A stretch of 64,000 nt of DNA, from sequence record MH051914; one strand, 5' to 3'. The position numbers were made by a program, and so were the translations under genes. The number at the start of each line of letters is the position of its first letter. Position 1 is the first letter of the stretch. The notes beneath the pieces were generated by a model. That model saw only the letters and a program-made list of their open reading frames with translations, did no database searches and had not been told where the DNA came from. The DNA is from Enterobacteria phage vB_EcoM_IME338. This document shows, in pieces, positions 16,162-64,000 of this stretch.

Positions 16162-17880
16162 ACGTCTTATCAAATACCCTTTCCTTTCCTTTCCAGAATC
16201 TATCCCACTGGTTCGATAGAATCTATCTCATACCTTAAAAGCAATAACTCTATAGTCTACTCTATAATCTCTTATCAAATCAACTTAAATATAAGCCCAT
16301 AACCCGAAAGGGAAGGGCAACCATTAATTGGTATTGTTACCAATCCCTAAAACGCTCTATAAAGCTCTATAACAGCCTTATCAACCTAACTTAAGCAATC
16401 ATATTAACCCACTTTAAAAAGCCCTTCCTAGAGCTTCCCAGAGCCTTAAAAGAATCTTATAAGTGTGTGAGCTTTATCATCTCGTTAGCTATCTTAATGG
16501 TATTGTTATCAATCCCTAGTGAATAACTAAACAACCCCTTGATAGTCACTAAAAAGTATGTTATAGGGGTTTAAAAGTTACTTTGAAGTAGCTTAAAAGT
16601 TACGTAAATGCTAGCCCCCTTAACATTTTCTTAACAATTCCTTAACAATCCCTACATAGTTATGCTTTTAAGGCACTTGTTAGCAACTTGTTAGCCCCTT
16701 GTTAAATCTCTGTTACAACCATGTAAAAGTTTTGTAAGAGTCTTTGACATAGCCTTAAAAGCTCCTGTAAAGCCCTATAAAGAGCTATCCATACAGTTGA
16801 GGGGTAGATACTAGGAAGAGGCTTAAAAGAGCTTACAAAGAGCTATAGAGAGCTTTTAAGAGGGCTATTTAAAGGGTCACTAGGGGTTGGTAACAATACC
16901 AATTAAGAAGGAAAGGGAACGATAAGAAAAGAGATAAGTTGTGTTTGTAAACAACCACTGTGACCATGTTAATAGCTTGTTAAAAAGATTAGACACTTGT
17001 TAGGAACTTGTTAATTATCTTAACAAAATAACTCTTAAAAATTAACTAATTGGTATTGTTACCAATCCCTGTTAACTCTTGTCAGTCATCTGTTAAACCT
17101 CTGTAAAGACTATGTATCAACTGTTAAGAAACTGTTACACTCTTGTTAAAACTGTTAAGAAACTGTTAAGACCTCTGAAGAGATGTTAAGAGCTTGAGAG
17201 AGTTGTTAAGAAATTGTTAAGGATATTTTAAAATTTTGCAAAGTACTTGTAAGGGAGCTGTTAAGGGCTACCAAGCAGATATACATCTTCTACAGATATT
17301 TTTGAGTTCCTTCAAAGACCCTAAAAAATGACTTGATAGTCCTATTTTATAAAAATTTTAAAATTCTGAATAATTACCTAGACAGTCTTTTAAAAATACA
17401 GGCATAAACAGGCTTATAAGATACCTTGTTAGTACCGTGTTAGACCTTGTGAGATAAGGTCTGTAAAGATATTCCTGTTAAGTTTGTTAAAACAGTCTAT
17501 ATAGAGGCTTAGTAATACCTAGTGAACACCTATAGAGGGTAACATAGCTGACATAATGGGTTACTGTTAAGTAATACAGATAACCTAGAGATTAAGAGGT
17601 GTATAGGGGCTTCTAAGAGGGTATAGAGAGATGGTTAAGGTGATTGTATAGGTTGTTAAGAATGCTTGTTAGAAGAGTGTTTAGAAGGGCTATACAGAGG
17701 GCTATTAAGACCACTAGATAGTTACTAAGATACTATATAGTACTATATAACTATATATAGAGAGTAAGATTAAGAAGGTTGTTAAGAAGGGTAGATATTT
17801 TATTCACATATGATGGTGACCCAGAGGTTGGGACAACCGATAAAATTTTATAAAAATTATAAATTTCGTAAATTTTACTC
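16162..17880. repeat. ORF-free repeat-rich region (palindromes, iteron-like short repeats)
   Basis: no ORF of 60 aa or more on either strand; 4 copies of palindrome-containing motif GGTATTGTTACCAATCC; many CTTAAAAG and TGTTAAG repeats. Confidence 0.6.
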
Positions 17881-24632: not shown

Positions 24633-25004
24633 ATGAAAAACAGAACAAACAAAGGCCAGTTTAAAAAAGGCCAGTCTGGAAACCCATCTGGAAGACCAAA
24701 AGGCTCTCGTAACAAAAGCTCACTCGTAAAAGCTCAACTGACCATTGATAATTCTGCTGAGTTCGCTGCAAAGCTGTTTGAGGCGATTGTTACAAGGGAC
24801 GCGGCTAAGCTTGCAGAGTTCGGTTTGACGACTGACGATGTAAACCTGAAGTCAATGATGGAAGCTGGTAAAACTATCATGACCCACTCAGCAGGTGAGA
24901 TGAAAGCAATTGCAGCAGACACTAAGAAGACTCCTGATAATGGTGGTCAACAACAGACAGATAACAAACCAACGTTCTCTGCTGTAGCGACTCTCAAAAA
25001 ATAA
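24633..25004 (+). CDS. hypothetical protein with basic N-terminal GNPSGRPKG motif
   Basis: 123-aa ORF, AAGAGG RBS. Confidence 0.5.
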   Translation: MKNRTNKGQFKKGQSGNPSGRPKGSRNKSSLVKAQLTIDNSAEFAAKLFEAIVTRDAAKLAEFGLTTDDVNLKSMMEAGKTIMTHSAGEMKAIAADTKKTPDNGGQQQTDNKPTFSAVATLKK

Positions 25005-25085: not shown

Positions 25086-26501
25086 ATGAGCGAGTTATTT
25101 AAACATGCGCACCTTCATGCAGGTCGAACTGAAAATGGTGCTGTAAACCATACTTCATCAATGTCTGCTCTGGTAGACTTCTACAAAGCCGCTGGCTCAA
25201 GCCGTAGCAATGTAGAAATCTTACCAGACCTGTTCTACAAAGCTTTGCGTGAGGATGTTGATGTTGCAGTTCGTATTTTACTGCATATGCGAGATGTAAG
25301 AGAAGGTATGGGTGAGCGTAAAGCTTTCCGAACTGTTTTACTTCAAGCGATTGAAGATAAGGTTTTAGAGCCTACACAGGTTCTTCGCATTATGGATAAG
25401 ATTGCAGAACTTGGTCGTTTTGATGACTTCAAAATCTTCGTAGGTACTCGTTTTGAGACAGATGCCTTCAAACATTTAGAATCAGCATTACTAGACCCTG
25501 CAACAGCAGGTTTAGCAGCTAAGTGGTTGCCACGAGTAAAACCACGCCACAAACAGTTTGTAAAACGTTTCTGCAAGTTTGCAAACTTAAGTGAGAAGGA
25601 GTATCGCACACTGTTGTCTGCACTATCTGATACGGTTGAGCAAAAAATCTCTGCTAATAAGTTTGGTAAGATTGACTACAGCAAGATTCCTTCACTCGCT
25701 GCTGCACGTTACCAAAAGCTCTTTAACCGTAAAGATGGGGAACGTTACAAAGCTTACATCGAGTCCCTCTCAAAAGGTGAGGCTAAGATTAACGCTGGTG
25801 CTGTTTACCCATACGATGTGATTAAATCTATCAAGTATGGTAATGCAGATGTTGCTAATGAGCAGTGGAAAGCACTACCAAACTGGATGGCAGAGGGTGA
25901 AAACATCTTGTGTATGACTGATGTTTCAAGCTCAATGTCTTGGGTGAATCTTGGTTCAATCACTGCCCTTGATATTGGTGTATCACTTGCCTTGTATGTA
26001 GCAGAACGCAATACAGGTTGCTTTAAAGATGAGTTAATGGTCTATTCAACAAACCCTCATTTCATTGAACTGAGTGGTGATTTACGAAACCGTCATCGTC
26101 AGGTAATGCGTCATGTTGAATATGGTTCAACTAACTTACAAGCAGCTTTTGACCGTATTCTTGAGGTAGGTAAGAGAAACAACTTGACTCAGAAAGATAT
26201 GCCAAGTAAGCTTATCATCTTCTCCGATATGGAGTTCAATCAGGTTGATGGAGCAAATGGTCGTACAAACTTTGAAGCAATTCAGAGTAAGTACAAAAAA
26301 GCTGGATACGAAATGCCACAACTAGTATTCTGGTACTTAGCAAACCGTAATGGGACTTGCGAAGTATCTGTTAAGGATAATGGTGTAGCAATGGTATCAG
26401 GGTTCTCTCCAGCCACTTTAAAAGCTCTGCTTGGTGGTGAGAAGTTTGACCCAATCAGCGTAATGCTCAAAGCAGTAATGATTGACCGTTACATCTGGTA
26501 A
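25086..26501 (+). CDS. rsr: Ro60/Rsr-like protein (C-terminal vWA with MIDAS; TROVE-like N-terminus)
   Basis: MIDAS DVSSSMS...T...D; C-terminal blocks IIFSDMEF and NRNGTCEVSVKDNGVAMVSGFSPATLKAL align with recalled human Ro60 vWA region; helical N-terminal region. Confidence 0.65.
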   Translation: MSELFKHAHLHAGRTENGAVNHTSSMSALVDFYKAAGSSRSNVEILPDLFYKALREDVDVAVRILLHMRDVREGMGERKAFRTVLLQAIEDKVLEPTQVLRIMDKIAELGRFDDFKIFVGTRFETDAFKHLESALLDPATAGLAAKWLPRVKPRHKQFVKRFCKFANLSEKEYRTLLSALSDTVEQKISANKFGKIDYSKIPSLAAARYQKLFNRKDGERYKAYIESLSKGEAKINAGAVYPYDVIKSIKYGNADVANEQWKALPNWMAEGENILCMTDVSSSMSWVNLGSITALDIGVSLALYVAERNTGCFKDELMVYSTNPHFIELSGDLRNRHRQVMRHVEYGSTNLQAAFDRILEVGKRNNLTQKDMPSKLIIFSDMEFNQVDGANGRTNFEAIQSKYKKAGYEMPQLVFWYLANRNGTCEVSVKDNGVAMVSGFSPATLKALLGGEKFDPISVMLKAVMIDRYIW

Positions 26502-26519: not shown

Positions 26520-26548
26520 TTGACAACGTGTTTGATACCCTTTAATAT
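26520..26548 (+). promoter_or_regulatory. sigma70-like promoter (tRNA/ncRNA array), overlapped by palindrome GGGTAT...ATACCC
   Basis: TTGACA-N17-TAATAT. Confidence 0.6.
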
Positions 26549-26610
26549 GTTCTACATAGAAACGAAATGAGAACTTTTCTAAGATACTGAAAAATATTTT
26601 AAAAAAGTTC

Positions 26611-26640
26611 TTGACAACCACTAAAAAATAATGTTAAAGT
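26611..26640 (+). promoter_or_regulatory. second sigma70-like promoter for tRNA array
   Basis: TTGACA-N17/18-TAAAGT. Confidence 0.55.
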
Positions 26641-26666: not shown

Positions 26667-26743
26667 CTCTGTTTAGCTCAGCTTGGTAGAGCGTTCCGTT
26701 TGGGGCGGTAAGGCCGGAGGTTCAAGTCCTCCAACAGAGACCA
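26667..26743 (+). tRNA. tRNA-Pro (anticodon TGG)
   Basis: manual cloverleaf: acceptor CTCTGTT/AACAGAG, anticodon loop TTTGGGG, T-arm GGAGG-TTCAAGT-CCTCC, CCA encoded. Confidence 0.75.
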
Positions 26744-26750
26744 AATTAAT

Positions 26751-26828
26751 GTTCCAGTAGACAAAATGGTATAGTCACCACTCTTTCAAAGTGGATATTT
26801 GAGGGTTCAAATCCCTTCTGGAACGCCA
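26751..26828 (+). tRNA. tRNA-Glu (anticodon TTC)
   Basis: acceptor GTTCCAG/CTGGAAC, anticodon arm CCACT-CTTTCAA-AGTGG, CCA encoded. Confidence 0.75.
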
Positions 26829-26835
26829 GTTTTGA

Positions 26836-26908
26836 CAGAAGACCAATTACAGCAAACTTAATCTTATTCATCTGACACGAAATCGGACAAAGAAGAGATT
26901 TGGTCTGG
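26836..26908 (+). ncRNA. Y-RNA-like structured element E1
   Basis: 5' CAGAAGACCAATTACAGCAA ... 3' TTGGTCTGG; terminal helix AGACCAA/TTGGTCT. Confidence 0.4.
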
Positions 26909-26919
26909 TCATTAAGAAT

Positions 26920-26996
26920 TGCGGGTATAGAGAAAGGGCGTCTCACATGTCTCATTAGCATGGTATCGGCAGGTTCGACTCCTGCACCCGCCTCCA
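26920..26996 (+). tRNA. tRNA-Met-like (anticodon CAT), atypical acceptor/D junction
   Basis: D-arm GAGA/TCTC, anticodon arm CATGT-CTCATTA-GCATG, T-arm GCAGG-TTCGACT-CCTGC; acceptor pairs only with a 3-nt connector or 1-72 mismatch. Confidence 0.5.
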
Positions 26997-27002
26997 ATTT
27001 TG

Positions 27003-27062
27003 CAGAAGACCGTATGCAGCAATAAACTACTTTTTGCGGATAAAAGAAAAAACACGGTCTGG
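27003..27062 (+). ncRNA. Y-RNA-like structured element E2
   Basis: 5' CAGAAGACCGTATGCAGCAA ... 3' ACGGTCTGG; helix AGACCGT/ACGGTCT (compensatory vs E1). Confidence 0.4.
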
Positions 27063-27073
27063 CAACCTATTAA

Positions 27074-27147
27074 GGTTAGGAAGCACATGAGGTATGTGCG
27101 GTCGCCTGTTAAGCGAATGGCACAGGGTTCGAATCCCTGACTAACCG
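27074..27147 (+). tRNA. tRNA-Asn (anticodon GTT)
   Basis: D-arm GCAC/GTGC, anticodon loop CTGTTAA, T-arm CAGGG-TTCGAAT-CCCTG. Confidence 0.75.
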
Positions 27148-27159
27148 CAAAATTTAAAT

Positions 27160-27247
27160 GTGTCGTTATCCCGTAGATGGTAGCGGTGGGGACTGTAAAT
27201 CCCTTGTCATTGAGACTCGGTAGGTTCGACTCCTACACGGCACACCA
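27160..27247 (+). tRNA. tRNA-Tyr (anticodon GTA), class II
   Basis: acceptor GTGTCGT/ACGGCAC, anticodon arm GGGGA-CTGTAAA-TCCCT, long variable arm, T-arm GTAGG-TTCGACT-CCTAC, CCA. Confidence 0.75.
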
Positions 27248-27308
27248 ATTTTGAGAGGGCTATTTAGCCCCTCCCTTAAAGGGTTCTTACGAGTATTCTT
27301 TAAAGGAG

Positions 27309-27382
27309 CAGAAGACCAAATACAGCAAGTTATTTAAAATTTCAAGCCAATTTAATTTTGAAAAATTTAAAACTTGGTCTGG
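27309..27382 (+). ncRNA. Y-RNA-like structured element E3
   Basis: 5' CAGAAGACCAAATACAGCAA ... 3' TTGGTCTGG. Confidence 0.4.
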
Positions 27383-27395
27383 CTCAACAAATTTA

Positions 27396-27526
27396 CAGAA
27401 AACCGTTTACAGCAAAACTTAAACAATCTATTTCTCGGTAAAGAAAAGGCGAAGGTTCGATTCCTTCACTCGGCAGATGTCGAGTTGGTGTAATGGTAGC
27501 ACTTAAGATGATAAACAACGGTCTGG
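27396..27526 (+). ncRNA. YrlA-like RNA candidate: terminal helix enclosing a permuted tRNA-like module
   Basis: ends CAGAAAACCGTTTACAGCAA / AACGGTCTGG; internal T-arm GAAGG-TTCGATT-CCTTC, closed acceptor-like hairpin ACTCGGC-AGAT-GTCGAGT, D-arm GTGT-AATGGTA-GCAC. Confidence 0.5.
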
Positions 27527-27529
27527 TAA

Positions 27530-27669
27530 TTATCTTTGTAGATAAGTTATTAAGCTTACCTGTGAGTATGCGACCACAAAGGGTGAAAGGGTAAATTCTA
27601 GATTTAAACCCAACAAGGCACATCGCTACAGACCTTAAGCAAGTCTGGGTAGCTTATCTACAAAGATAA
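27530..27669 (+). ncRNA. structured RNA candidate with perfect 17-bp terminal stem
   Basis: TTATCTTTGTAGATAAG pairs with CTTATCTACAAAGATAA about 105 nt away; inner bulged hairpin CTACAGAC/GTCTGGGTAG. Confidence 0.4.
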
Positions 27670-27675
27670 TTTAAT

Positions 27676-27751
27676 GGAAGTGTAGCAGAATGGTGATGCG
27701 GCAGACTTTTAATCTGACAGGCGATGGGTTCGAATCCCTCCACTTCTACCA
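27676..27751 (+). tRNA. tRNA-Lys (anticodon TTT)
   Basis: acceptor GGAAGTG/CACTTCT, anticodon loop CTTTTAA, T-loop TTCGAAT; T-stem only 3 G-C pairs. Confidence 0.6.
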
Positions 27752-27755
27752 ATAT

Positions 27756-27832
27756 GGTTCAGTCGCAGATAAGGTAATGCAGGGGTCTCATAAGCCCTAT
27801 GAATGTGGGTTCGATTCCCATCTGAACCTCCA
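27756..27832 (+). tRNA. tRNA-Met (anticodon CAT; initiator/elongator/Ile2 not resolved)
   Basis: acceptor GGTTCAG/CTGAACC, anticodon arm GGGGT-CTCATAA-GCCCT, T-arm GTGGG-TTCGATT-CCCAT. Confidence 0.7.
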
Positions 27833-27834
27833 AT

Positions 27835-27910
27835 GCTGTGAAAGCACATATGGATGTGCATTCGGCTGATAACCGAAAGGCAGAAGGTTCGAATCCTTCT
27901 CACAGTACCA
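27835..27910 (+). tRNA. tRNA-Ile (anticodon GAT)
   Basis: canonical: D GCAC/GTGC, anticodon arm TTCGG-CTGATAA-CCGAA, T-arm GAAGG-TTCGAAT-CCTTC, CCA. Confidence 0.85.
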
Positions 27911-27925
27911 ATTTCAATAAAGTTG

Positions 27926-27954
27926 TTGACATTGATGTGTGACTACTTTATAGT
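27926..27954 (+). promoter_or_regulatory. internal sigma70-like promoter within tRNA region
   Basis: TTGACA-N17-TATAGT. Confidence 0.55.
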
Positions 27955-28157
27955 AACCTTAGTTTTCGTTGCGTAGCGTCTATTTTGCAAATCTAAAATA
28001 AATGCAAACGACAATGTTTTTCTGGCAGTAGCTTGATAGGCTAAACACCAGTGAGGTCTTCCAATCCCTCATCAAAGAATTTGGCGTACTCGCCCACGGT
28101 ATGATTAATAAGGTGGGCATCTTTAAGGGCTTTCTAAGAGAGTCTTTAAAGATTAAT

Positions 28158-28234
28158 GCACCCTTAGTTCAACTGGACAGAACAAATGACTTCTAATCAT
28201 TAGGTTACAGGTTCGAATCCTGTAGGGTGTGCCA
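28158..28234 (+). tRNA. tRNA-Arg (anticodon TCT)
   Basis: D GTTC/GAAC, anticodon arm AATGA-CTTCTAA-TCATT, T-arm ACAGG-TTCGAAT-CCTGT, CCA. Confidence 0.8.
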
Positions 28235-28376
28235 AATAGTTAGCAGATTGCTTAGACGACCTTATCGGGTCTCCGTGTAAGGAGGTGGTCTGTATCTCAT
28301 GTTTTCCAGAACATGTAAATAATCTGAGAAGGGGCTTTACAGTGTTGTGAAAATACGGTAAGCTTCGAATTATAGT

Positions 28377-28459
28377 GTGGGACGATGTTAAGACTCTAAG
28401 GCATGAGCAACGGCTTCCAACACCGTTTCAAAGGGGTTCAACTCCTCCGTCCCATGCCA
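28377..28459 (+). tRNA. tRNA-Trp-like (anticodon CCA) with 7-nt insertion between acceptor stem and D-arm
   Basis: acceptor GTGGGAC/GTCCCAT + CCA; D ACTC-TAAGGCAT-GAGC; anticodon arm AACGG(C)-TTCCAAC-(A)CCGTT with 31-39 mismatch; T-loop TTCAACT; 9-nt connector instead of 2. Confidence 0.45.
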
Positions 28460-28472
28460 AAGTCTTATTAGG

Positions 28473-28560
28473 GGTAGGTAGCGGCTAATGGTAGCCAAAC
28501 TGTCTTGAAAACAGTTGCCACTGTAGAGATACGGTGAGGGTTCGACTCCTTTACTTACCG
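28473..28560 (+). tRNA. tRNA-Ser (anticodon TGA), class II
   Basis: acceptor GGTAGGT/ACTTACC, anticodon arm ACTGT-CTTGAAA-ACAGT, variable arm stem CTGTA/TACGG, T-loop TTCGACT. Confidence 0.7.
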
Positions 28561-28817
28561 CCTAATAAGATTTAAAGCCAAGCTTCATTCGGATGTTGCT
28601 TTGGTATCCCTCGTGTATTGTCGTACACCCTGATAAAGCACCTAGTAGGTGTCACGGAGAAGAGATAATATCAAGCTCTCCAAAGGTTCTAGTCACCGGA
28701 TTGAACAAGACTATGCAAAGACCAATTTAGGTCTTTTTAGAGGGCTTCTAAGGTTATTACAGCTTGTTGTGGAACCTTGTTGCTTAGGTTCTTAGAAGTT
28801 CTCTAAAAAGATTTAAT

Positions 28818-28894
28818 GCACCTATAGCCCAACTGGTAGAGGCAGCAGACTTAGAATCTGCTCAGTGTGAGTTCGAATCTCTCTAGGTGTACCA
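28818..28894 (+). tRNA. tRNA with anticodon TAG (Leu by anticodon) but short variable arm
   Basis: acceptor GCACCTA/TAGGTGT, anticodon arm GCAGA-CTTAGAA-TCTGC, T-loop TTCGAAT, A73, CCA. Confidence 0.6.
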
Positions 28895-28901
28895 AATTAA
28901 T

Positions 28902-28977
28902 GCAGGTGTAGCAAAATGGTTATGCGGCTGACTCTTAATCAGTAAGACGATGGGTTCAATTCCCTCCACCTGTACCA
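28902..28977 (+). tRNA. tRNA-Lys (anticodon CTT)
   Basis: paralog of Lys-TTT gene; anticodon loop CTCTTAA; CCA. Confidence 0.6.
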
Positions 28978-28983
28978 AACATT

Positions 28984-29059
28984 GGGGTCATAGTTTATAT
29001 GGTTAAAATTCGAGTTTTGCAAACTTGGGAACTGAGTTCAATTCTCAGTGACTCCACCA
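28984..29059 (+). tRNA. tRNA-Ala (anticodon TGC)
   Basis: acceptor GGGGTCA/TGACTCC with G3-U70 identity pair, anticodon loop TTTGCAA, T-arm CTGAG-TTCAATT-CTCAG, CCA. Confidence 0.8.
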
Positions 29060-29065
29060 ATTAGT

Positions 29066-29140
29066 GCATCCATAGTTTAAACGGGAAAATTACAGTCTTC
29101 CAAACTGAGGTTGAGGGTTCGATTCCCTCTGGATGCTCCA
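29066..29140 (+). tRNA. tRNA-Gly (anticodon TCC)
   Basis: acceptor GCATCCA/TGGATGC, anticodon loop CTTCCAA, T-arm GAGGG-TTCGATT-CCCTC, CCA. Confidence 0.75.
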
Positions 29141-29147
29141 AATTAAT

Positions 29148-29224
29148 GCTGCTTTCGTATAATTGGCTATTACACATCCCTTGTAAGGATGGAAATGCAG
29201 GTTCGAGTCCTGTGAGCAGCACCA
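29148..29224 (+). tRNA. tRNA-Thr (anticodon TGT)
   Basis: anticodon arm CATCC-CTTGTAA-GGATG, T-arm GCAGG-TTCGAGT-CCTGT, CCA. Confidence 0.75.
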
Positions 29225-29227
29225 ATT

Positions 29228-29319
29228 CAGAGGTCAAGTGAAAGACCGCTGGTGTCAACTGAAGACCGTAACAAATTCCACGGAGTTGAGTTAGCGGCAC
29301 AACTTCAGACCTCTTTCAT
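29228..29319 (+). ncRNA. structured element E6 with two GAAGACC-type motifs
   Basis: CAGAGGTC...GACCTCTTTCAT terminal pairing; internal GTGAAAGACCGC and CTGAAGACCGTAACAAA. Confidence 0.3.
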
Positions 29320-29394
29320 ACTCGCTTAGTTTATATGGTAAAACACCACCCTTACAAGATGAAGAAAAAGGTTCAAGTCCTTTAGTGAGTACCA
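29320..29394 (+). tRNA. tRNA-Val-like (anticodon TAC) with weak anticodon stem; possible pseudo-tRNA
   Basis: good acceptor, D-arm GTTT/AAAC, T-arm AAAGG-TTCAAGT-CCTTT; anticodon loop CTTACAA but stem CCACC/GATGA has 3 of 5 pairs. Confidence 0.45.
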
Positions 29395-29395
29395 T

Positions 29396-29474
29396 GTTCC
29401 AGTATCCCAATTGGCAGAGAGGCCAGACTTAAAATCTGTGTTATGTATCGGTTCGAATCCGATATGGAGTACCA
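29396..29474 (+). tRNA. tRNA-Leu-like (anticodon TAA), atypical 5' half
   Basis: T-arm ATCGG-TTCGAAT-CCGAT, anticodon loop CTTAAAA, acceptor GTTCCAG/ATGGAGT with two G-U pairs; D-arm pairing ambiguous. Confidence 0.45.
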
Positions 29475-29479
29475 AATTT

Positions 29480-29555
29480 AGCGGTATAGCATAACTGGCA
29501 ATGCAACAGTCTCTGAAGCTGTCTTATTAAGGTTCAAATCCTTATGCCGCTGCCA
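29480..29555 (+). tRNA. tRNA-Gln (anticodon CTG)
   Basis: D GCAT/ATGC, anticodon arm ACAGT-CTCTGAA-GCTGT, T-arm TAAGG-TTCAAAT-CCTTA, CCA. Confidence 0.75.
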
Positions 29556-29586
29556 CTTCTAAGGATTCTTACGAGAGTCCTTAAAT

Positions 29587-29662
29587 GTGGCCTTATCATA
29601 AATGGTAATAACCCATGCTGTGAACATGGTCTATACGGGTTCAAATCCCGTAGGTCACCCCA
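29587..29662 (+). tRNA. tRNA-His (anticodon GTG)
   Basis: anticodon arm CCATG-CTGTGAA-CATGG, T-arm ACGGG-TTCAAAT-CCCGT, C73, CCA; no encoded G-1. Confidence 0.7.
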
Positions 29663-29667
29663 ATTTA

Positions 29668-29744
29668 TAGTCCAAGTAGCTTATATGGTTAAAGCGCGTG
29701 TCTGAAAAACATGAGAAGAGGGTTCAAATCCCACTGGACTACCA
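29668..29744 (+). tRNA. tRNA-Phe-like (anticodon GAA), 4-nt acceptor/D connector
   Basis: perfect acceptor TAGTCCA/TGGACTA, D GCTT/AAGC, anticodon arm CGTGT-CTGAAAA-ACATG, T-loop TTCAAAT. Confidence 0.55.
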
Positions 29745-29760
29745 ATTTCAAAGGTGCTTA

Positions 29761-30495
29761 ATGAAAGAGATGACAGAACAAGGTAAGGAGATTTTTAATC
29801 TCTTAAAAACCGGTAGAGGGTTTTCTAATCCCCTTATTACTGGTGCAGCAGTTCTCGGTGGAACCGTAGCTGCCTCTACATCACTTATAAGCTCTATTAG
29901 CTCTGTAACAGACCCTACAATAAAGGATAAACTTGTTGCTGCTGGACTGACAACAGTTCTGCTTAACAGCTTTACAACGAGCCTGACAAGCACTACATCA
30001 ACCACTAAGACATTGACAGACTACGGTCAAAAGTCTATTGATGAGTTTTCATCACGTATGCAGGTAGCAAAAGGCTATTCTAATGTTATGGGTGCAGCAG
30101 GAGAGCAAGTTGGTTGTACACCATTTAGTGGTATTATGGGTGTTGCTACAGAGTATGGTCAAAAAGCTATTGACACAATTAACAGTGCACTAGATGGTGT
30201 TAATGATGTATTAAGCGACTTACAAGATGCTATTGATAAAGGTCTTGATACTATTTCTGATTTAGCTAACCAAGCTGTTAGCAAGATTAATGAAGGTATC
30301 TCAAAGATTACAGCTTATGCAGATGAAGTTGTGCAGATGATTGAAGAAGAAGCTGCCCTTATTGCAGAGTACCTTAAAACGAATATCAATGGGTTCTTAG
30401 CAGGTATCTTACCAGACTGGTTTGACGATGCTTGTAAAACTGGTGTAATTGATACTATTGCAACACCAGAAATGAAGAACGCATTACAGAAATAA
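29761..30495 (+). CDS. hypothetical Ser/Thr/Ala-rich protein embedded in tRNA array
   Basis: start reset to ATG 29761 with AAAGGTG RBS; track start 29698 would overlap tRNA-Phe-like gene. Confidence 0.5.
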   Translation: MKEMTEQGKEIFNLLKTGRGFSNPLITGAAVLGGTVAASTSLISSISSVTDPTIKDKLVAAGLTTVLLNSFTTSLTSTTSTTKTLTDYGQKSIDEFSSRMQVAKGYSNVMGAAGEQVGCTPFSGIMGVATEYGQKAIDTINSALDGVNDVLSDLQDAIDKGLDTISDLANQAVSKINEGISKITAYADEVVQMIEEEAALIAEYLKTNINGFLAGILPDWFDDACKTGVIDTIATPEMKNALQK

Positions 30496-30496
30496 T

Positions 30497-30589
30497 GGAA
30501 GATTAACCCTAAAAGGTAAGGGAGCAGTTTGCTAAACTGCCAGTAGCTGAGAAATCGGTGTACCAGTTCAAGTCTGGTATCTTCCTCCA
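30497..30589 (+). tRNA. tRNA-Ser (anticodon GCT), class II
   Basis: acceptor GGAAGAT/ATCTTCC, anticodon arm GCAGT-TTGCTAA-ACTGC, long variable arm, T-arm ACCAG-TTCAAGT-CTGGT, CCA. Confidence 0.75.
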
Positions 30590-30593
30590 ATTT

Positions 30594-30669
30594 GAATCCG
30601 TGACAGAAATGGATATGTGCCTGTCTGCAAAACAGGTTTATAAGGGTTCGAGTCCCTTCGGATTCTCCA
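30594..30669 (+). tRNA. tRNA-Cys (anticodon GCA)
   Basis: acceptor GAATCCG/CGGATTC, anticodon arm CCTGT-CTGCAAA-ACAGG, T-arm AAGGG-TTCGAGT-CCCTT, CCA. Confidence 0.8.
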
Positions 30670-61615: not shown

Positions 61616-61886
61616 ATCTGGTCAATACACTCGCAAGGTGTACCAGTTCTCTTATGAACTTCTCCGCATTTCTACGGAGTGTCGGACTATATCACGTAGC
61701 AGTGATGCTACCGTTGCACTTGGGGATGGTCATTAGCTTACCACCCTACTCTACTCAGTTCATACGTTAAGTATGCTTTTCGATAGTCTCTGAACGTTCC
61801 TCTTAAGAGGCTTCGCTGCTGATTACCATATCTTTCCAGACTTAGGCTTCCAGCAATTCACAACGTTTTACATGCGCCACTGACGC
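61616..61886 (-). other. group I intron interrupting the DNA polymerase gene (boundaries within a few nt)
   Basis: minus-strand RNA carries group I core: P4-like GAAUUGCUGGAAGCC, UAUGGUAAUCAGCAG, P7 strands GUUCAGAGACUA and GAUAUAGUCCGAC; exon 1 frame hits a stop inside. Confidence 0.75.
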
Positions 61887-64000
61887 ATAAATGCCATTTT
61901 TGGCTTTCTTACGACCTTTTGTAATCTCGTGAAGAAGCTCCTCATCCTGCGTCTCCCTACAACGAACAATATCATCTTCCTTGTTTAGACCGAAGTAAAT
62001 ACTATTCAGTGTATGTGCATCAGTACCTGTGTAGACTTCGTAGAGGTCATTCTCAGCATCATAACGAAGATACTTATCAGTTTCTGGATTGAGGTACTTA
62101 TCGAGATGCTTGCAATAGTATCTTCCATCCTCTTGCTTGGTAAATTCTACTGACTCTTTACCTTCAGTTACCGCTTTGGTGAAGTCTTTATCACCCATAA
62201 AGTTACACAGTAAAACAAGCTGTGCAGAGTTCTGGTCAACTGAAACGATATTAGTCCCTTCCTCGCAAATCCACACCTCCCTCATAGGTGCTCCATAGAC
62301 AGCAGCACCAGACGGTACGTTTACAATACCATATTGTGTCATACGTCCAGTTGAAGTACCAAACACCATTGCACCAGCACTAAGGCGACCATCAGGACGA
62401 ATCTGGTTCAACCAACCTTTTTCATCATCCTTTGAGTTCTCAATAGTTCTGCGTCGGTGCATCAAGGTATAGTATTTCGCAATCTTCTGTCCAAGCTCAC
62501 CTTCAATCGTATCATAAGATGATTCAGTAAGTTTTGGTGAAGTACGGATTAAGCAAGGCTCAAGCAAATCTGTGTACTTCTTCACAGACCAGTTATGCTC
62601 AATGTACTGGACACCTTCGTGTTCAACATAACTCAAACCACACCGTTCCACCATCTCATCCCATTTAGGATGCTTTGTAATCATCTTTTTGTTGTCTTTG
62701 AAGCGACAAACCTTAACAGGACGACCATCAGAGTCTTTCTTATAGTTCCAGTCATCTGGAATCCAACCAACTGATTTCAAGTAGTCTTTAACAACTGCTA
62801 CCTGAGTCATACGAGAAACTTCGAACTCAATTGGTGTATATGGTGCATCAATCAAACCTGTGTAGCGACTTGACTCAAGTTCAAAGTGGTTAACAACATG
62901 ACTGTTATAGTACTTCACAGTCTTAACTGTTTTTACTGGCTTCCAGTCTTTGCATTTCTTACCAATCTTTGCATTCAACTCATTGCAAATTGCACGAGCA
63001 TCCTTCATTGCTACAAAGCCTTCCTTGTACTCTTCACCAGTTACCGAGTTGGTTGGTGTATAGCAATTCCGCTTTTCAATGTTAAAAATCTTTGTAGTTG
63101 GCTTACCAAATGGCTTGATTTCATATGTCTGCATCTCACCGTTACGTACCTGTTGACGATACTTTGTCTTAGGGTACTTGGTAATTCTCTTCAGTCCATC
63201 TGCATGACCAAATGCTTCAACATACTCATTCCAAGCTTTTGCAAATTCTTCTCCAGTGACTTTACCTTTGGTCTTAATAGTTGGAGGAAGATGTGGTTCA
63301 ACTTCTGAAGCAAGCTCGTTAGTCAACTTGTCAAGTTCCTTTACATGGAACTCCATAAGCTCTTTATCAGCTTTCCAACCATTGATAGCCTGTTGACTCA
63401 TCCAGAAAGATGTTTCTTTAGCTCGCATGTAGGTTTCATAGGTGTCTACGCCACACTTCTTTAGCTTCAGATATTCATTATCCAATGCACGTTTAGTTTT
63501 GGCGTTAATACGGATATCTTCCACAACACGAGTGAAGATTTCTGCATTCCACACACCCCAATGTTCAATCTCTGGTTTACGGACACCAACACGAGCACCC
63601 CATGCTGCCAAGCCATGAGCACCTTTATAGCCTTTTGGAGTTGGTCTATCCATCCACTGAACACGAGACTGGATAAGAGAATCCTGAAAGAAATTACTCC
63701 ACGGCTTACACTTTGGATTATCAAAGTTCCACAAATCGGGTGCAATGTGATTGAAAACCCACCAGTCATAACCGAGACCGTTATGGATGCAAAGACGTTT
63801 TGCCTTTAACGCAAATTCAACACCTTCACGTAAACCACCCTTAATGTACTTGGTATACTTGTGACCGAGGATAGGTTCATCTGTAAAGACCCATACAGGT
63901 GGCTCTTCATCGTCAGATTTATAGTCTGCGAAAGCCATTACGTGCACTTTAGTGAACTCAAGGAGTAAACCATCAGTTTCTGTATCACCAACTAAATGTA
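61887..64000 (-). CDS. DNA polymerase family A, exon 1 (N-terminal part, runs off window end)
   Basis: Exo I motif DTETDGL in the frame extending past 63947 to the window edge; motif A VSVDQNSAQL; ends inside motif B RKKAKNGIY. Confidence 0.75.

Follow-up and report, generated by a model that had tools for sequence, protein, structure and literature searches.

An element of about 144 nt lodged in the tRNA array of Enterobacteria phage vB_EcoM_IME338 (record MH051914), just upstream of tRNA-Lys(UUU), is very probably a conserved structured RNA, judging from the way its sequence has changed among related phages. It would found a new family of structured RNAs, so far undescribed, and our search of the literature on Felix O1/Felixounavirus non-coding RNAs, DUF2828 and phage Y RNAs found no description of it. 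It most plausibly belongs to the Ro60/Y-RNA world. The best overall reading, which we favor tentatively and rate slightly below an even chance, is that of a stable RNA excised from a tRNA transcript and serving as an elaborated Y-RNA-type partner of Ro60. Hereafter, the window refers to the whole 64,000-nt stretch of phage DNA that was analyzed, and coordinates are those of the window (Table 1).

The initial annotation had drawn attention to a perfect 17-nt inverted repeat (27530-27546 and 27653-27669) enclosing about 105 nt. Both arms were recovered, nested in perfect arms of 19 nt (27528-27546, AATTATCTTTGTAGATAAG, and 27653-27671) that are separated by 106 nt in the window, extend to 22 nt at 95% complementarity, and amount to 24 pairs in the RNA-level closing stem, P1, once G-U pairs are counted. 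The same annotation had regarded such a long perfect stem as unusual, a view borne out by first-order Markov simulations of the window (n = 100): perfect inverted repeats of at least 17 nt lying no more than 300 nt apart occurred in none of the simulated windows, compared with two in the real one. Neither the arm sequence nor the whole element has a second copy that we could find within the window. The folding check that had been recommended gave -48.3 kcal/mol for the segment (z = -5.7), an energy equaled by none of 200 dinucleotide shuffles. On the + strand, the predicted fold consists of the 24-pair P1 and three inner hairpins, with the terminal hairpin lying against the 3' strand of P1.

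Table 1. Coordinates of the element, of its parts and of the neighboring features in the window.
Feature	Position	Strand	Basis or remark
Ro60 homolog, DUF2828 + DUF7788 (TROVE-like ring + vWA)	25086..26501	+	Pfam
Two sigma-70-like promoters before the tRNA array	26520..26640 (~26520, ~26611)	+	
tRNA array, 22 genes	26667-30669	+	element inside
M1	26836-26908	+	Y-like module among tRNAs
M2	27003-27062	+	Y-like module among tRNAs
M3	27309-27382	+	Y-like module among tRNAs
M4, YrlA-like	27396-27526	+	Y-like bulged stem (CAGAAAACCGUU.../...AACGGUCUGG), CAGCAA
P1 5' strand, closing stem	27528..27551	+	19 nt perfect, 24 pairs including G-U
Junction GCUUA, candidate pseudoknot 5' strand	27554..27558	+	complementary to terminal loop
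P2 hairpin GUG-AGUAUGCGAC-CAC	27562..27577	+	covarying stem, loop form (G)AGUR(U)GSS
P3 hairpin GGGUAAAUU-CUA-GAUUUAAACCC, contains UCUAGA	27589..27611	+	predicted fold
Terminal hairpin CAGAC-CUUAAGCAA-GUCUG, 5 bp, 9-nt loop	27629..27647	+	abuts P1 3' strand
Terminal hairpin strands	27629-27633 / 27643-27647	+	CAGAC/GUCUG
Loop bases UAAGC, candidate pseudoknot 3' strand	27636-27640	+	complementary to junction GCUUA
P1 3' strand	27648..27671	+	pairing and covariation
Linker UAAU, 4 nt, to tRNA-Lys(UUU)	27672..27675	+	predicted RNase P cut at 27675/27676

Comparison with related phages, which had also been proposed, revealed the same architecture built from unrelated stem sequences. The window is a Felixounavirus (Ounavirinae), and its region 27250-27680 shows 98-99% identity to more than 200 FelixO1-like relatives in this genus, from E. 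coli, Salmonella, Shigella and Citrobacter. With this shared architecture and at the corresponding site, the element is present in 11 sequence lineages of Ounavirinae-like phages: type A (the window and other Felixounavirus genomes), type B (Mooglevirus, Suspvirus and a few Felixounavirus), and lineages C to K, metagenomic or GenBank phages with a Ro60-like protein that shares 53-63% identity with that of the window (in order, L034/L117, L119, L121, L035, L118, Yersinia phage P778 or L116, L120/L124, L125, and L126). Each lineage carries a segment of 140-175 nt with a similar fold upstream of tRNA-Lys(UUU), usually at a distance of 1-8 nt, the exceptions being L118, in which a tRNA-Lys(CUU) intervenes, and L126, in which 140 nt more are found. 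P1 counts 18-30 pairs and the fold z-scores range from -3.6 to -6.7 in lineages A-I, and lineages J and K fold alike. The core is multi-branched and its last hairpin combines a stem of 5-6 bp with a 9-nt loop of the form C(C)UU(A/U)AG(C/U)AA, of which (A/U)AG(C/U)AA is retained in all lineages but I, where the loop reads CCUAUGCAA or CUUGCAC.

P1 of lineages D-K bears no sequence relationship to that of the window and yet keeps its pairing; only the A/U-rich base of the stem is moderately conserved (UCUUUG/CAAAGA, UAUUUA/UAAAUA). In a MAFFT alignment limited to types A-C (alignment A3), RNAalifold predicts both P1 and the terminal hairpin, with standard pairs in 99.6% of the cells. Both sides have changed in 10 of the 27 pairs (8/22 in P1 and 2/5 in the terminal hairpin), versus at most one when the structure is slid by 1-3 columns. 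Single substitutions within type A lead to G-U pairs rather than to mismatches. Of the two strands, it is the + strand (the tRNA strand) that gives the better fold in 10 of 11 representatives, and the G-U pairs likewise favor it. A MAFFT alignment of all lineages proved structurally unworkable, and P1 and the pseudoknot of lineages D-K were scored by custom structure-parsing scripts. Together, the changes on both paired sides, the preference for the + strand and the unrelated arms that still pair argue for a structure at the RNA level on the tRNA strand, not for a DNA palindrome. The proposal of the initial annotation that the repeat delimits another structured RNA thus gains support from covariation, from the architecture common to 11 lineages and from strand-specific G-U pairs.

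The inner parts of the element covary to different degrees. The P2 stem reads GUG/CAC in type A, CAU/AUG in type B, GGGG/CCCC in type C, and CUAU/AUAG in L035, its register being less certain than that of P1. In P3, types A and B have UCUAGA where type C, through changes on both sides, has ACUAGU; this hairpin is only partly recognizable in lineages D-K. The stem of the terminal hairpin is AGAC/GUCU, AAACC/GGUUU, AGUC/GACU, GUUC/GAAC, AUUC/GAAU, or GUCC/GGAU across lineages A-H, J, and K. The smaller bulged hairpin noticed inside the repeat exists, with a conserved core reduced to the 5-bp CAGAC/GUCUG and the 9-nt loop CUUAAGCAA. Its bulged CUAC/GUAG extension is unconserved and competes with an inward extension of P1 (AAGUUAU/GUAGCUU), which is the one that relatives keep. 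Similarly, GTCTGG, which had been read as a motif shared with Y-RNA-like elements, gives way to GACTGG, GAACGG, GAATGG, or GGATTG in relatives, each variant being matched by a compensating 5' strand. The suggested link to Y-RNA-like elements is itself reasonable, given the AGCAA loop and the position of the L035 element inside a CAGCA module stem, and what is held in common is the geometry of loop and helix rather than the GTCTGG word.

The terminal loop may be engaged in a tertiary contact. When this loop is compared with everything upstream of it in the same RNA, its best Watson-Crick duplex, or one that ranks equal or second, falls just 3' of the P1 5' strand in 10 of 11 lineages. The junction partner is located at element positions 23-30 in the sites of lineages A-I, and consists of UGCUU and UGCU at position 32, 2-3 nt past P1, in lineages J and K, respectively. 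Junction and loop change in a compensatory manner, as GCUUA/UAAGC (A), GCUAA/UUAGC (B, H), UUGCUUA/UAAGCAA (C), UUACUA/UAGUAA (D), UUGCU/AGCAA (E), UUGCUU/AAGCAA (F), and UGCUU/AAGCA (J). The duplex is limited to 4 bp in lineages G and K, and is missing at the usual place in lineage I. The paired loop bases continue straight into the 3' strand of the hairpin and leave 3-4 loop bases on the 5' side, as in the geometry of an H-type pseudoknot. Given that the junction strand could pair locally with another segment in types B and C, and shares 3 nt with the predicted base of P2 in types A and D, we refer to this pseudoknot as a candidate only. Dimerization through the self-complementary CUUAAG of the loop was also considered, and was rejected on the loss of this complementarity in type B (CUUUAG).

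The distribution of the element was explored in several ways. A model based on types A-C alone (R1) finds the element where it should lie in L119 (E = 9e-4) and in L121 (E = 0.017), and gives a weak match or none on lineages G, H, and I, so that the true distribution may exceed our sample. Around the Ro60 genes of ~150 distant loci, neither a regular expression describing the hairpin nor model R1 returned anything credible, the best R1 match being L096 (E = 1.2). A search of IMG/VR with P0022 yielded one distant locus only, a metagenome scan added members of types A-C and distant loci with no new intermediate lineage, and no D or E variant was found in GenBank phages. The Ro60 gene is thus far more widespread than the element, which is therefore not an obligatory partner of Ro60. 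All relatives were found via the Ro60 gene or as Ounavirinae, hence the co-occurrence of element and Ro60 gene is biased and does not constitute an independent test. Rfam 15 gave no match over the element at E <=10 in the window and none at E <=5 in six relatives; at gathering and permissive thresholds alike, the window and these six relatives returned tRNAs and chance matches only.

The gene upstream of the array connects the locus with the Ro60 world. Its product, annotated by PHROG as an 'RNA-binding protein', is predicted to adopt a Ro60 fold (TROVE plus vWA). The AlphaFold model has a pLDDT of 88.7, and its top 12 Foldseek matches in the PDB, among which Ro60 of Thermus phage phiLo, are all TROVE/Ro60/Rsr proteins (E 1e-6 to 4e-8, TM up to 0.66). 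The protein also shares 34% identity with a mycobacteriophage 'Ro-like RNA binding protein', and it corresponds to gp130 of the Felixounavirus phage Bas63, a Ro60-like protein reported to counter Ppl, a defense system that is itself uncharacterized (PMC11482910). The authors of that study speculated that some of the downstream 'tRNA genes' are Y RNAs (PMC11482910). In Thermus phage phiLo, Ro60 binds two adjoining Y-like RNAs, Yrl1 and Yrl2 (PMC12135203). Our element begins 1027 nt past the stop codon of the Ro60 homolog and on the same strand, a spacing well inside the ~4 kb within which YrlA RNAs are found on the same strand as Ro60 (PMC4201824).

Four modules separate the Ro60 homolog from the element. 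M1-M3 follow the pattern NNC-AGA-AGACCnnn-UnCAGCAA ... nnnGGUCU-G-GNN, and all four modules have a covarying 3-bp basal stem, a bulge (AGA / G), and a 7-bp helix AGACCnn/nnGGUCU followed by UnCAGCAA. M4 further contains a permuted tRNA-like domain, in which a T arm comes first, then an acceptor-like stem capped by a tetraloop, and last a D arm, the order described for YrlA (PMC4201824); the equivalent region of L003 gives a partial Rfam tRNA match. The YrlA motif GNCGAA was looked for as well and occurs in M4 by chance (GGCGAAGG), being conserved in neither L003 nor L004. M4 and the element form two independently folding domains 2 nt apart, in direct abutment in types A and B.

Such modules are not restricted to the window. 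A module was scored as a helix strand of 6 or 7 nt that is separated by 2-4 nt from NCAGCA and finds its reverse complement within ~190 nt. Among 74 distant viral loci with a Ro60 protein of 40-48% identity, 57 had modules on the gene strand within 1 kb of the DUF2828-type Ro60 gene, versus 11 for the opposite strand. Counted individually, 101 modules near the Ro60 gene were on the same strand and 14 on the opposite one, compared with 40 and 50 away from the gene. A second set of 74 metagenome loci gave 161 forward and 60 reverse modules. The consensus is AA-G-R-W-U-NNN-U-(A/U)-CAGCAA ... helix'-C-Y-G, with T and D arms in many copies. A helix-CAGCAA class thus adjoins DUF2828-type Ro60 genes in most of ~150 diverse phage loci. 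M1-M4 fit this consensus, and their fit, along with the strand-biased modules at distant Ro60 genes, makes them the local representatives of a Ro60-associated class of RNAs that is widespread. The class signature, CAGCAA, differs from the published GNCGAAN0-1G, and no published description of the class was found in the literature searched.

Several features tie the element to these modules. Its terminal hairpin, helix-(C)UU(A/U)AGCAA-helix', is a minimal form of the module helix-NU(A/U)CAGCAA ... helix'. The flanks of this hairpin are module-like in types A, B, and D (UACAGACC ... GGUCUG(C/G)GUA), and UUUGCAG is retained in types A and B within the 5' strand of P1. In lineage F (L035), the element has an entire module stem as its inner stem (AAAG-AAUCU-UU-CAGCA ... 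AGAUUC-CCUG); only this lineage shows the CAGCA signature in full, and the others have AGCAA only. The AGCAA hairpin, the module stem of lineage F, and the UUUGCAG of P1 suggest that the element evolved from a helix-CAGCAA module, and it may share the protein partner of the latter. Yet the two are not alike in every respect: the modules carry the motif where a long variable insert begins and the element carries it within a 9-nt hairpin loop, where its first base is A or U instead of C and where it is predicted to pair with the junction. If the pseudoknot forms, AGCAA would be partly sequestered, which would count against a partnership with Ro60. Known Ro60-binding motifs are the GGUCCGA bulged helix in animals and GNCGAAN0-1G near the 5' end in YrlA, and the element has neither.

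Y RNAs of the YrlA type (Chen et al. 2014, PMC4201824; Yrl1/Yrl2 of phiLo, PMC12135203) resemble the element in having a Ro60 homolog within ~1 kb on the same strand, a size of ~100-150 nt, and paired 5' and 3' ends (predicted in our case) that form a long basal stem around a structured domain. They also occur clustered with other Y-like RNAs, as the element does with M4 and its domain of T arm, acceptor, and D arm. By contrast, the element lacks GNCGAAN0-1G, CGAA, and GGUCCGA, has no tRNA-like domain, possesses a much longer and nearly perfect stem together with a candidate junction-loop pseudoknot, and resides inside a tRNA operon, next to a divergent Ro60 of the DUF2828 type and to RNAs that bear CAGCAA. 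The element RNA could be a partner of the phage Ro60 homolog, a proposal in which our confidence is not quite even.

The surroundings of the element indicate how such an RNA could be produced. It belongs to a stretch of 425 nt devoid of tRNAs that separates tRNA-Tyr (27160-27247) from tRNA-Lys(UUU) (27676-27751), with M4, 2 nt upstream of P1, on one side and tRNA-Lys(UUU) on the other. No terminator-like site was detected on the + strand before the next promoter at 27926-27954, and the downstream tRNA-Lys, tRNA-Met, and tRNA-Ile have no promoter of their own before 27926. The stem is followed by UAAUGG and by no U-tract (AAUUUAAUGG), and a scan for intrinsic terminators found none at the element. 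The + strand of the element would then be transcribed within the first transcript of the tRNA array, from the promoters at ~26520 and ~26611. RNase P, whose known role is to cut at the 5' ends of tRNAs, would release its 3' end by cutting at the 5' end of tRNA-Lys(UUU), 4 nt downstream, and an endonucleolytic cut past M4 would generate its 5' end. P1 would close both ends of the RNA and protect it against exonucleases. The AGCAA hairpin, together with the stem in some lineages, could supply the helix-plus-AGCAA signature for recognition by Ro60, and the pseudoknotted core could act as an effector or tethering domain. For comparison, the tRNA-like domain is the effector or tether in YrlA, as is the PNPase-binding loop in Yrn1 of Deinococcus.

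The same structural evidence applies to a stable structured RNA that operates independently of Ro60, either as a decoy or inhibitor of a host nuclease or of an RNA-sensing defense, or as a regulator of a host RNA-binding protein, the tRNA array having been chosen merely for its strong transcription and ready processing. We regard this alternative as somewhat unlikely, although the restriction of the element to Ounavirinae-like phages, compared with the much wider Ro60 gene and CAGCAA modules, and the lack of canonical Ro60-binding motifs both speak for it. It is also consistent with the tight adjacency to tRNA-Lys(UUU), which anticodon nucleases often attack, and with the tRNA cluster of T4, which keeps two stable non-tRNA RNAs, rnaC and rnaD (species 1 and 2). 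Like the element, these RNAs of 119-139 nt are located in a phage tRNA cluster and are presumably freed by tRNA-processing enzymes. Unlike the element, rnaC carries a T-arm-like domain on its 3' side and is not closed by a long stem, and neither RNA neighbors a Ro60 homolog; homology was rejected, as model R1 (filters off) gives no match and the folds differ. What speaks against a Ro60-independent role is the AGCAA loop signature, the embedding of the lineage F element in a CAGCA module, and the direct abutment on a YrlA-like module in types A and B. Moreover, mimicry of the tRNA-Lys anticodon arm, considered because CAGAC and GCAGA-C are alike in the window, was rejected: the hairpin stem does not track the tRNA-Lys anticodon stem in L034 or Yersinia phage P778. 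Nothing similar to the element exists in E. coli genomes, 5,426 of which yielded no host or prophage homolog.

A role limited to processing or insulation is improbable. The 22-26-bp duplex would then be an RNase III site enclosing a functionless RNA, which separates the Y-like cluster from the downstream tRNAs or sets the 5' leader of tRNA-Lys. RNase III stalks flank 16S and 23S rRNA, and those of rRNA operons and phage early transcripts likewise place a duplex of at least 20 bp on either side of a structured RNA within a polycistronic transcript. P1 reaches the length of an RNase III substrate (~20 bp of near-continuous duplex), and the duplex spans at least two helical turns in every lineage. 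The location between two gene classes, 1-8 nt from a tRNA, and the moderately conserved A/U-rich base of P1 fit this role as well. However, the RNA enclosed by the element is small and has a conserved candidate tertiary contact of its own, unlike that of RNase III stalks, and the conserved terminal loop, its covarying junction partner, and the covarying inner hairpins would be left unexplained. Most other tRNA junctions of the array also manage without a comparable element. Processing by RNase III and a functional product can in any case coexist.

The two remaining readings, even taken together, deserve very little weight. A DNA-level palindrome, whether it binds a protein, forms a cruciform, serves in recombination, or is left over from a small mobile element with terminal inverted repeats, is very improbable. 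The perfect 19-bp arms found in most Felixounavirus genomes would suit such a site, and so would Salmonella phage BPSELC-1, whose type-B core within a type-A backbone implies recombination within or next to the arms. Nevertheless, the arms are unrelated among lineages and still pair, their G-U pairs become A-C mismatches on the other strand, and the position relative to tRNA-Lys is fixed across lineages. There is no visible target-site duplication, and a mobile element of the MITE or IS type was rejected on the single copy in the window, on arms that covary as RNA pairs, and on the absence from 5,426 E. coli genomes. Finally, a terminator, an attenuator, or a small protein-coding gene is next to negligible: the hairpin is strong, and short ORFs are annotated across the element in several records (as 'hypothetical protein' in some GenBank records; overlapping frames of 33 aa on the + strand and 76 aa on the - strand are open in the window), but the stem is followed by no U-tract, three downstream tRNAs would be left without a promoter of their own before 27926, and no frame runs uninterrupted through the element in every lineage, the longest open stretch switching strand and frame between lineages.

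The preferred reading, that of a stable RNA partner of Ro60 released from the tRNA transcript, can be carried further. The element could be the founding member of a new class of pseudoknotted Ro60-associated RNAs that forms, along with the CAGCAA modules and Ro60, an RNA-protein anti-defense machine. We consider this extension unlikely as things stand. In such a machine, the closed stem and the knotted core would dock on or inhibit a host effector, such as the Ppl nuclease/ATPase or a tRNA-targeting nuclease. The AGCAA hairpin would recruit Ro60, and competition between loop-junction pairing and Ro60 binding would act as a regulatory switch.

Concrete candidates can now be named for the RNAs that phage Ro60 homologs use. 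These are the four CAGCAA modules, one of them YrlA-like, and a larger RNA with a candidate pseudoknot, all with defined secondary structures and contacts that can be mutated. More than 250 sequenced phage genomes gain an RNA family, in a region across which several phage records annotate spurious 'hypothetical proteins'. With these candidates in hand, the RNA side of the anti-defense function of phage Ro60 becomes testable in a tractable E. coli phage.

A same-strand helix-CAGCAA RNA module adjoins the DUF2828-type Ro60 gene in the majority of approximately 150 diverse phage loci, as surveyed in the window (26836-27526) and in two sets of loci carrying such genes, L042-L115 and L134-L207. The module is found in one to four tandem copies per locus, often with a T arm and a D arm. 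Near-gene modules in the first set lie in forward versus reverse orientation in 101 and 14 cases, respectively; the corresponding figures for the second set are 161 and 60. The modules appear to represent the Y RNAs of the DUF2828-type Ro60 family; no prior account of this class was found in the literature searched.

The stem of M4, one of the window's Y-like modules, encloses a T arm and a D arm with, between them, an acceptor-like stem capped by a tetraloop. M4 is left without annotation in GenBank records, and Rfam tRNA partially matches the equivalent region of L003, a relative. The 'tRNA-???' genes called by ARAGORN in three Ounavirinae-like relatives may be additional tRNA-like Y RNAs. 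On the other side of the Ro60 homolog, a DUF5681 gene lies directly 5' in all Ounavirinae-like loci examined (the window, L034, L035, L117-L121 and L124-L126), and may be part of the system of this homolog.

Features of the window and of related loci
Feature	Location	Strand	Description
tmRNA-like element	window 27968-28157		tRNA-Ile/tRNA-Arg interval, immediately past strong promoter 27926-27954
Module M4	window 27396-27526		YrlA-like; Y-type bulged stem around permuted tRNA-like domain
'tRNA-???' genes (ARAGORN)	L119 6091-6161; L120 6107-6181; L124 6098-6168		abnormal anticodon loops; directly 3' of Ro60 gene
DUF5681 gene	window 24633-25004		123 aa in window; immediately 5' of Ro60 homolog
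Second long perfect inverted repeat	window 16887-17065		19-nt arms TTGGTAACAATACCAATTA, 141-nt gap
Hairpin GAGAGGGCUAUUUAGCCCCUC	window 27253-27275		3' of tRNA-Tyr
Group I intron	window 61662-61945	-	Rfam RF00028, 62 bits, above gathering threshold

The tag frame of the tmRNA-like element (28004-28039) encodes ANDNVFLAVA, similar to the SsrA tag ANDENYALAA, followed by two stop codons; it is kept in the relative L001 and reads ANDNAFLAVA, again with two stops, in L003. The element scores weakly against Rfam tmRNA and tmRNA_permuted, at 15-31 bits, and is not recognised as a tmRNA by ARAGORN.

Besides the repeat of the structured element upstream of tRNA-Lys, the window holds a single long perfect inverted repeat, located in a 900-nt stretch (16500-17400) that is devoid of ORFs of at least 40 aa and rich in CTTGTTAA/CTGTTAA repeats; this stretch could serve as an origin or in regulation. 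The hairpin downstream of tRNA-Tyr, which precedes the conserved segment AAAGGGUUCUUACGAG, is kept in L034 as GGAAGGACUUUUUAGUCCCUCC, with a compensatory change.

Finally, the structured element exists in several types, among them type A, the form found in the window, and type B, found in Mooglevirus, Suspvirus and a few Felixounavirus phages. The Felixounavirus Salmonella phage BPSELC-1 (L001 729-874) combines a type-B core with type-A flanks and a type-A outer part of the closing stem P1. Given this mixed composition, the element has been swapped between genera, through recombination within or beside the stem.
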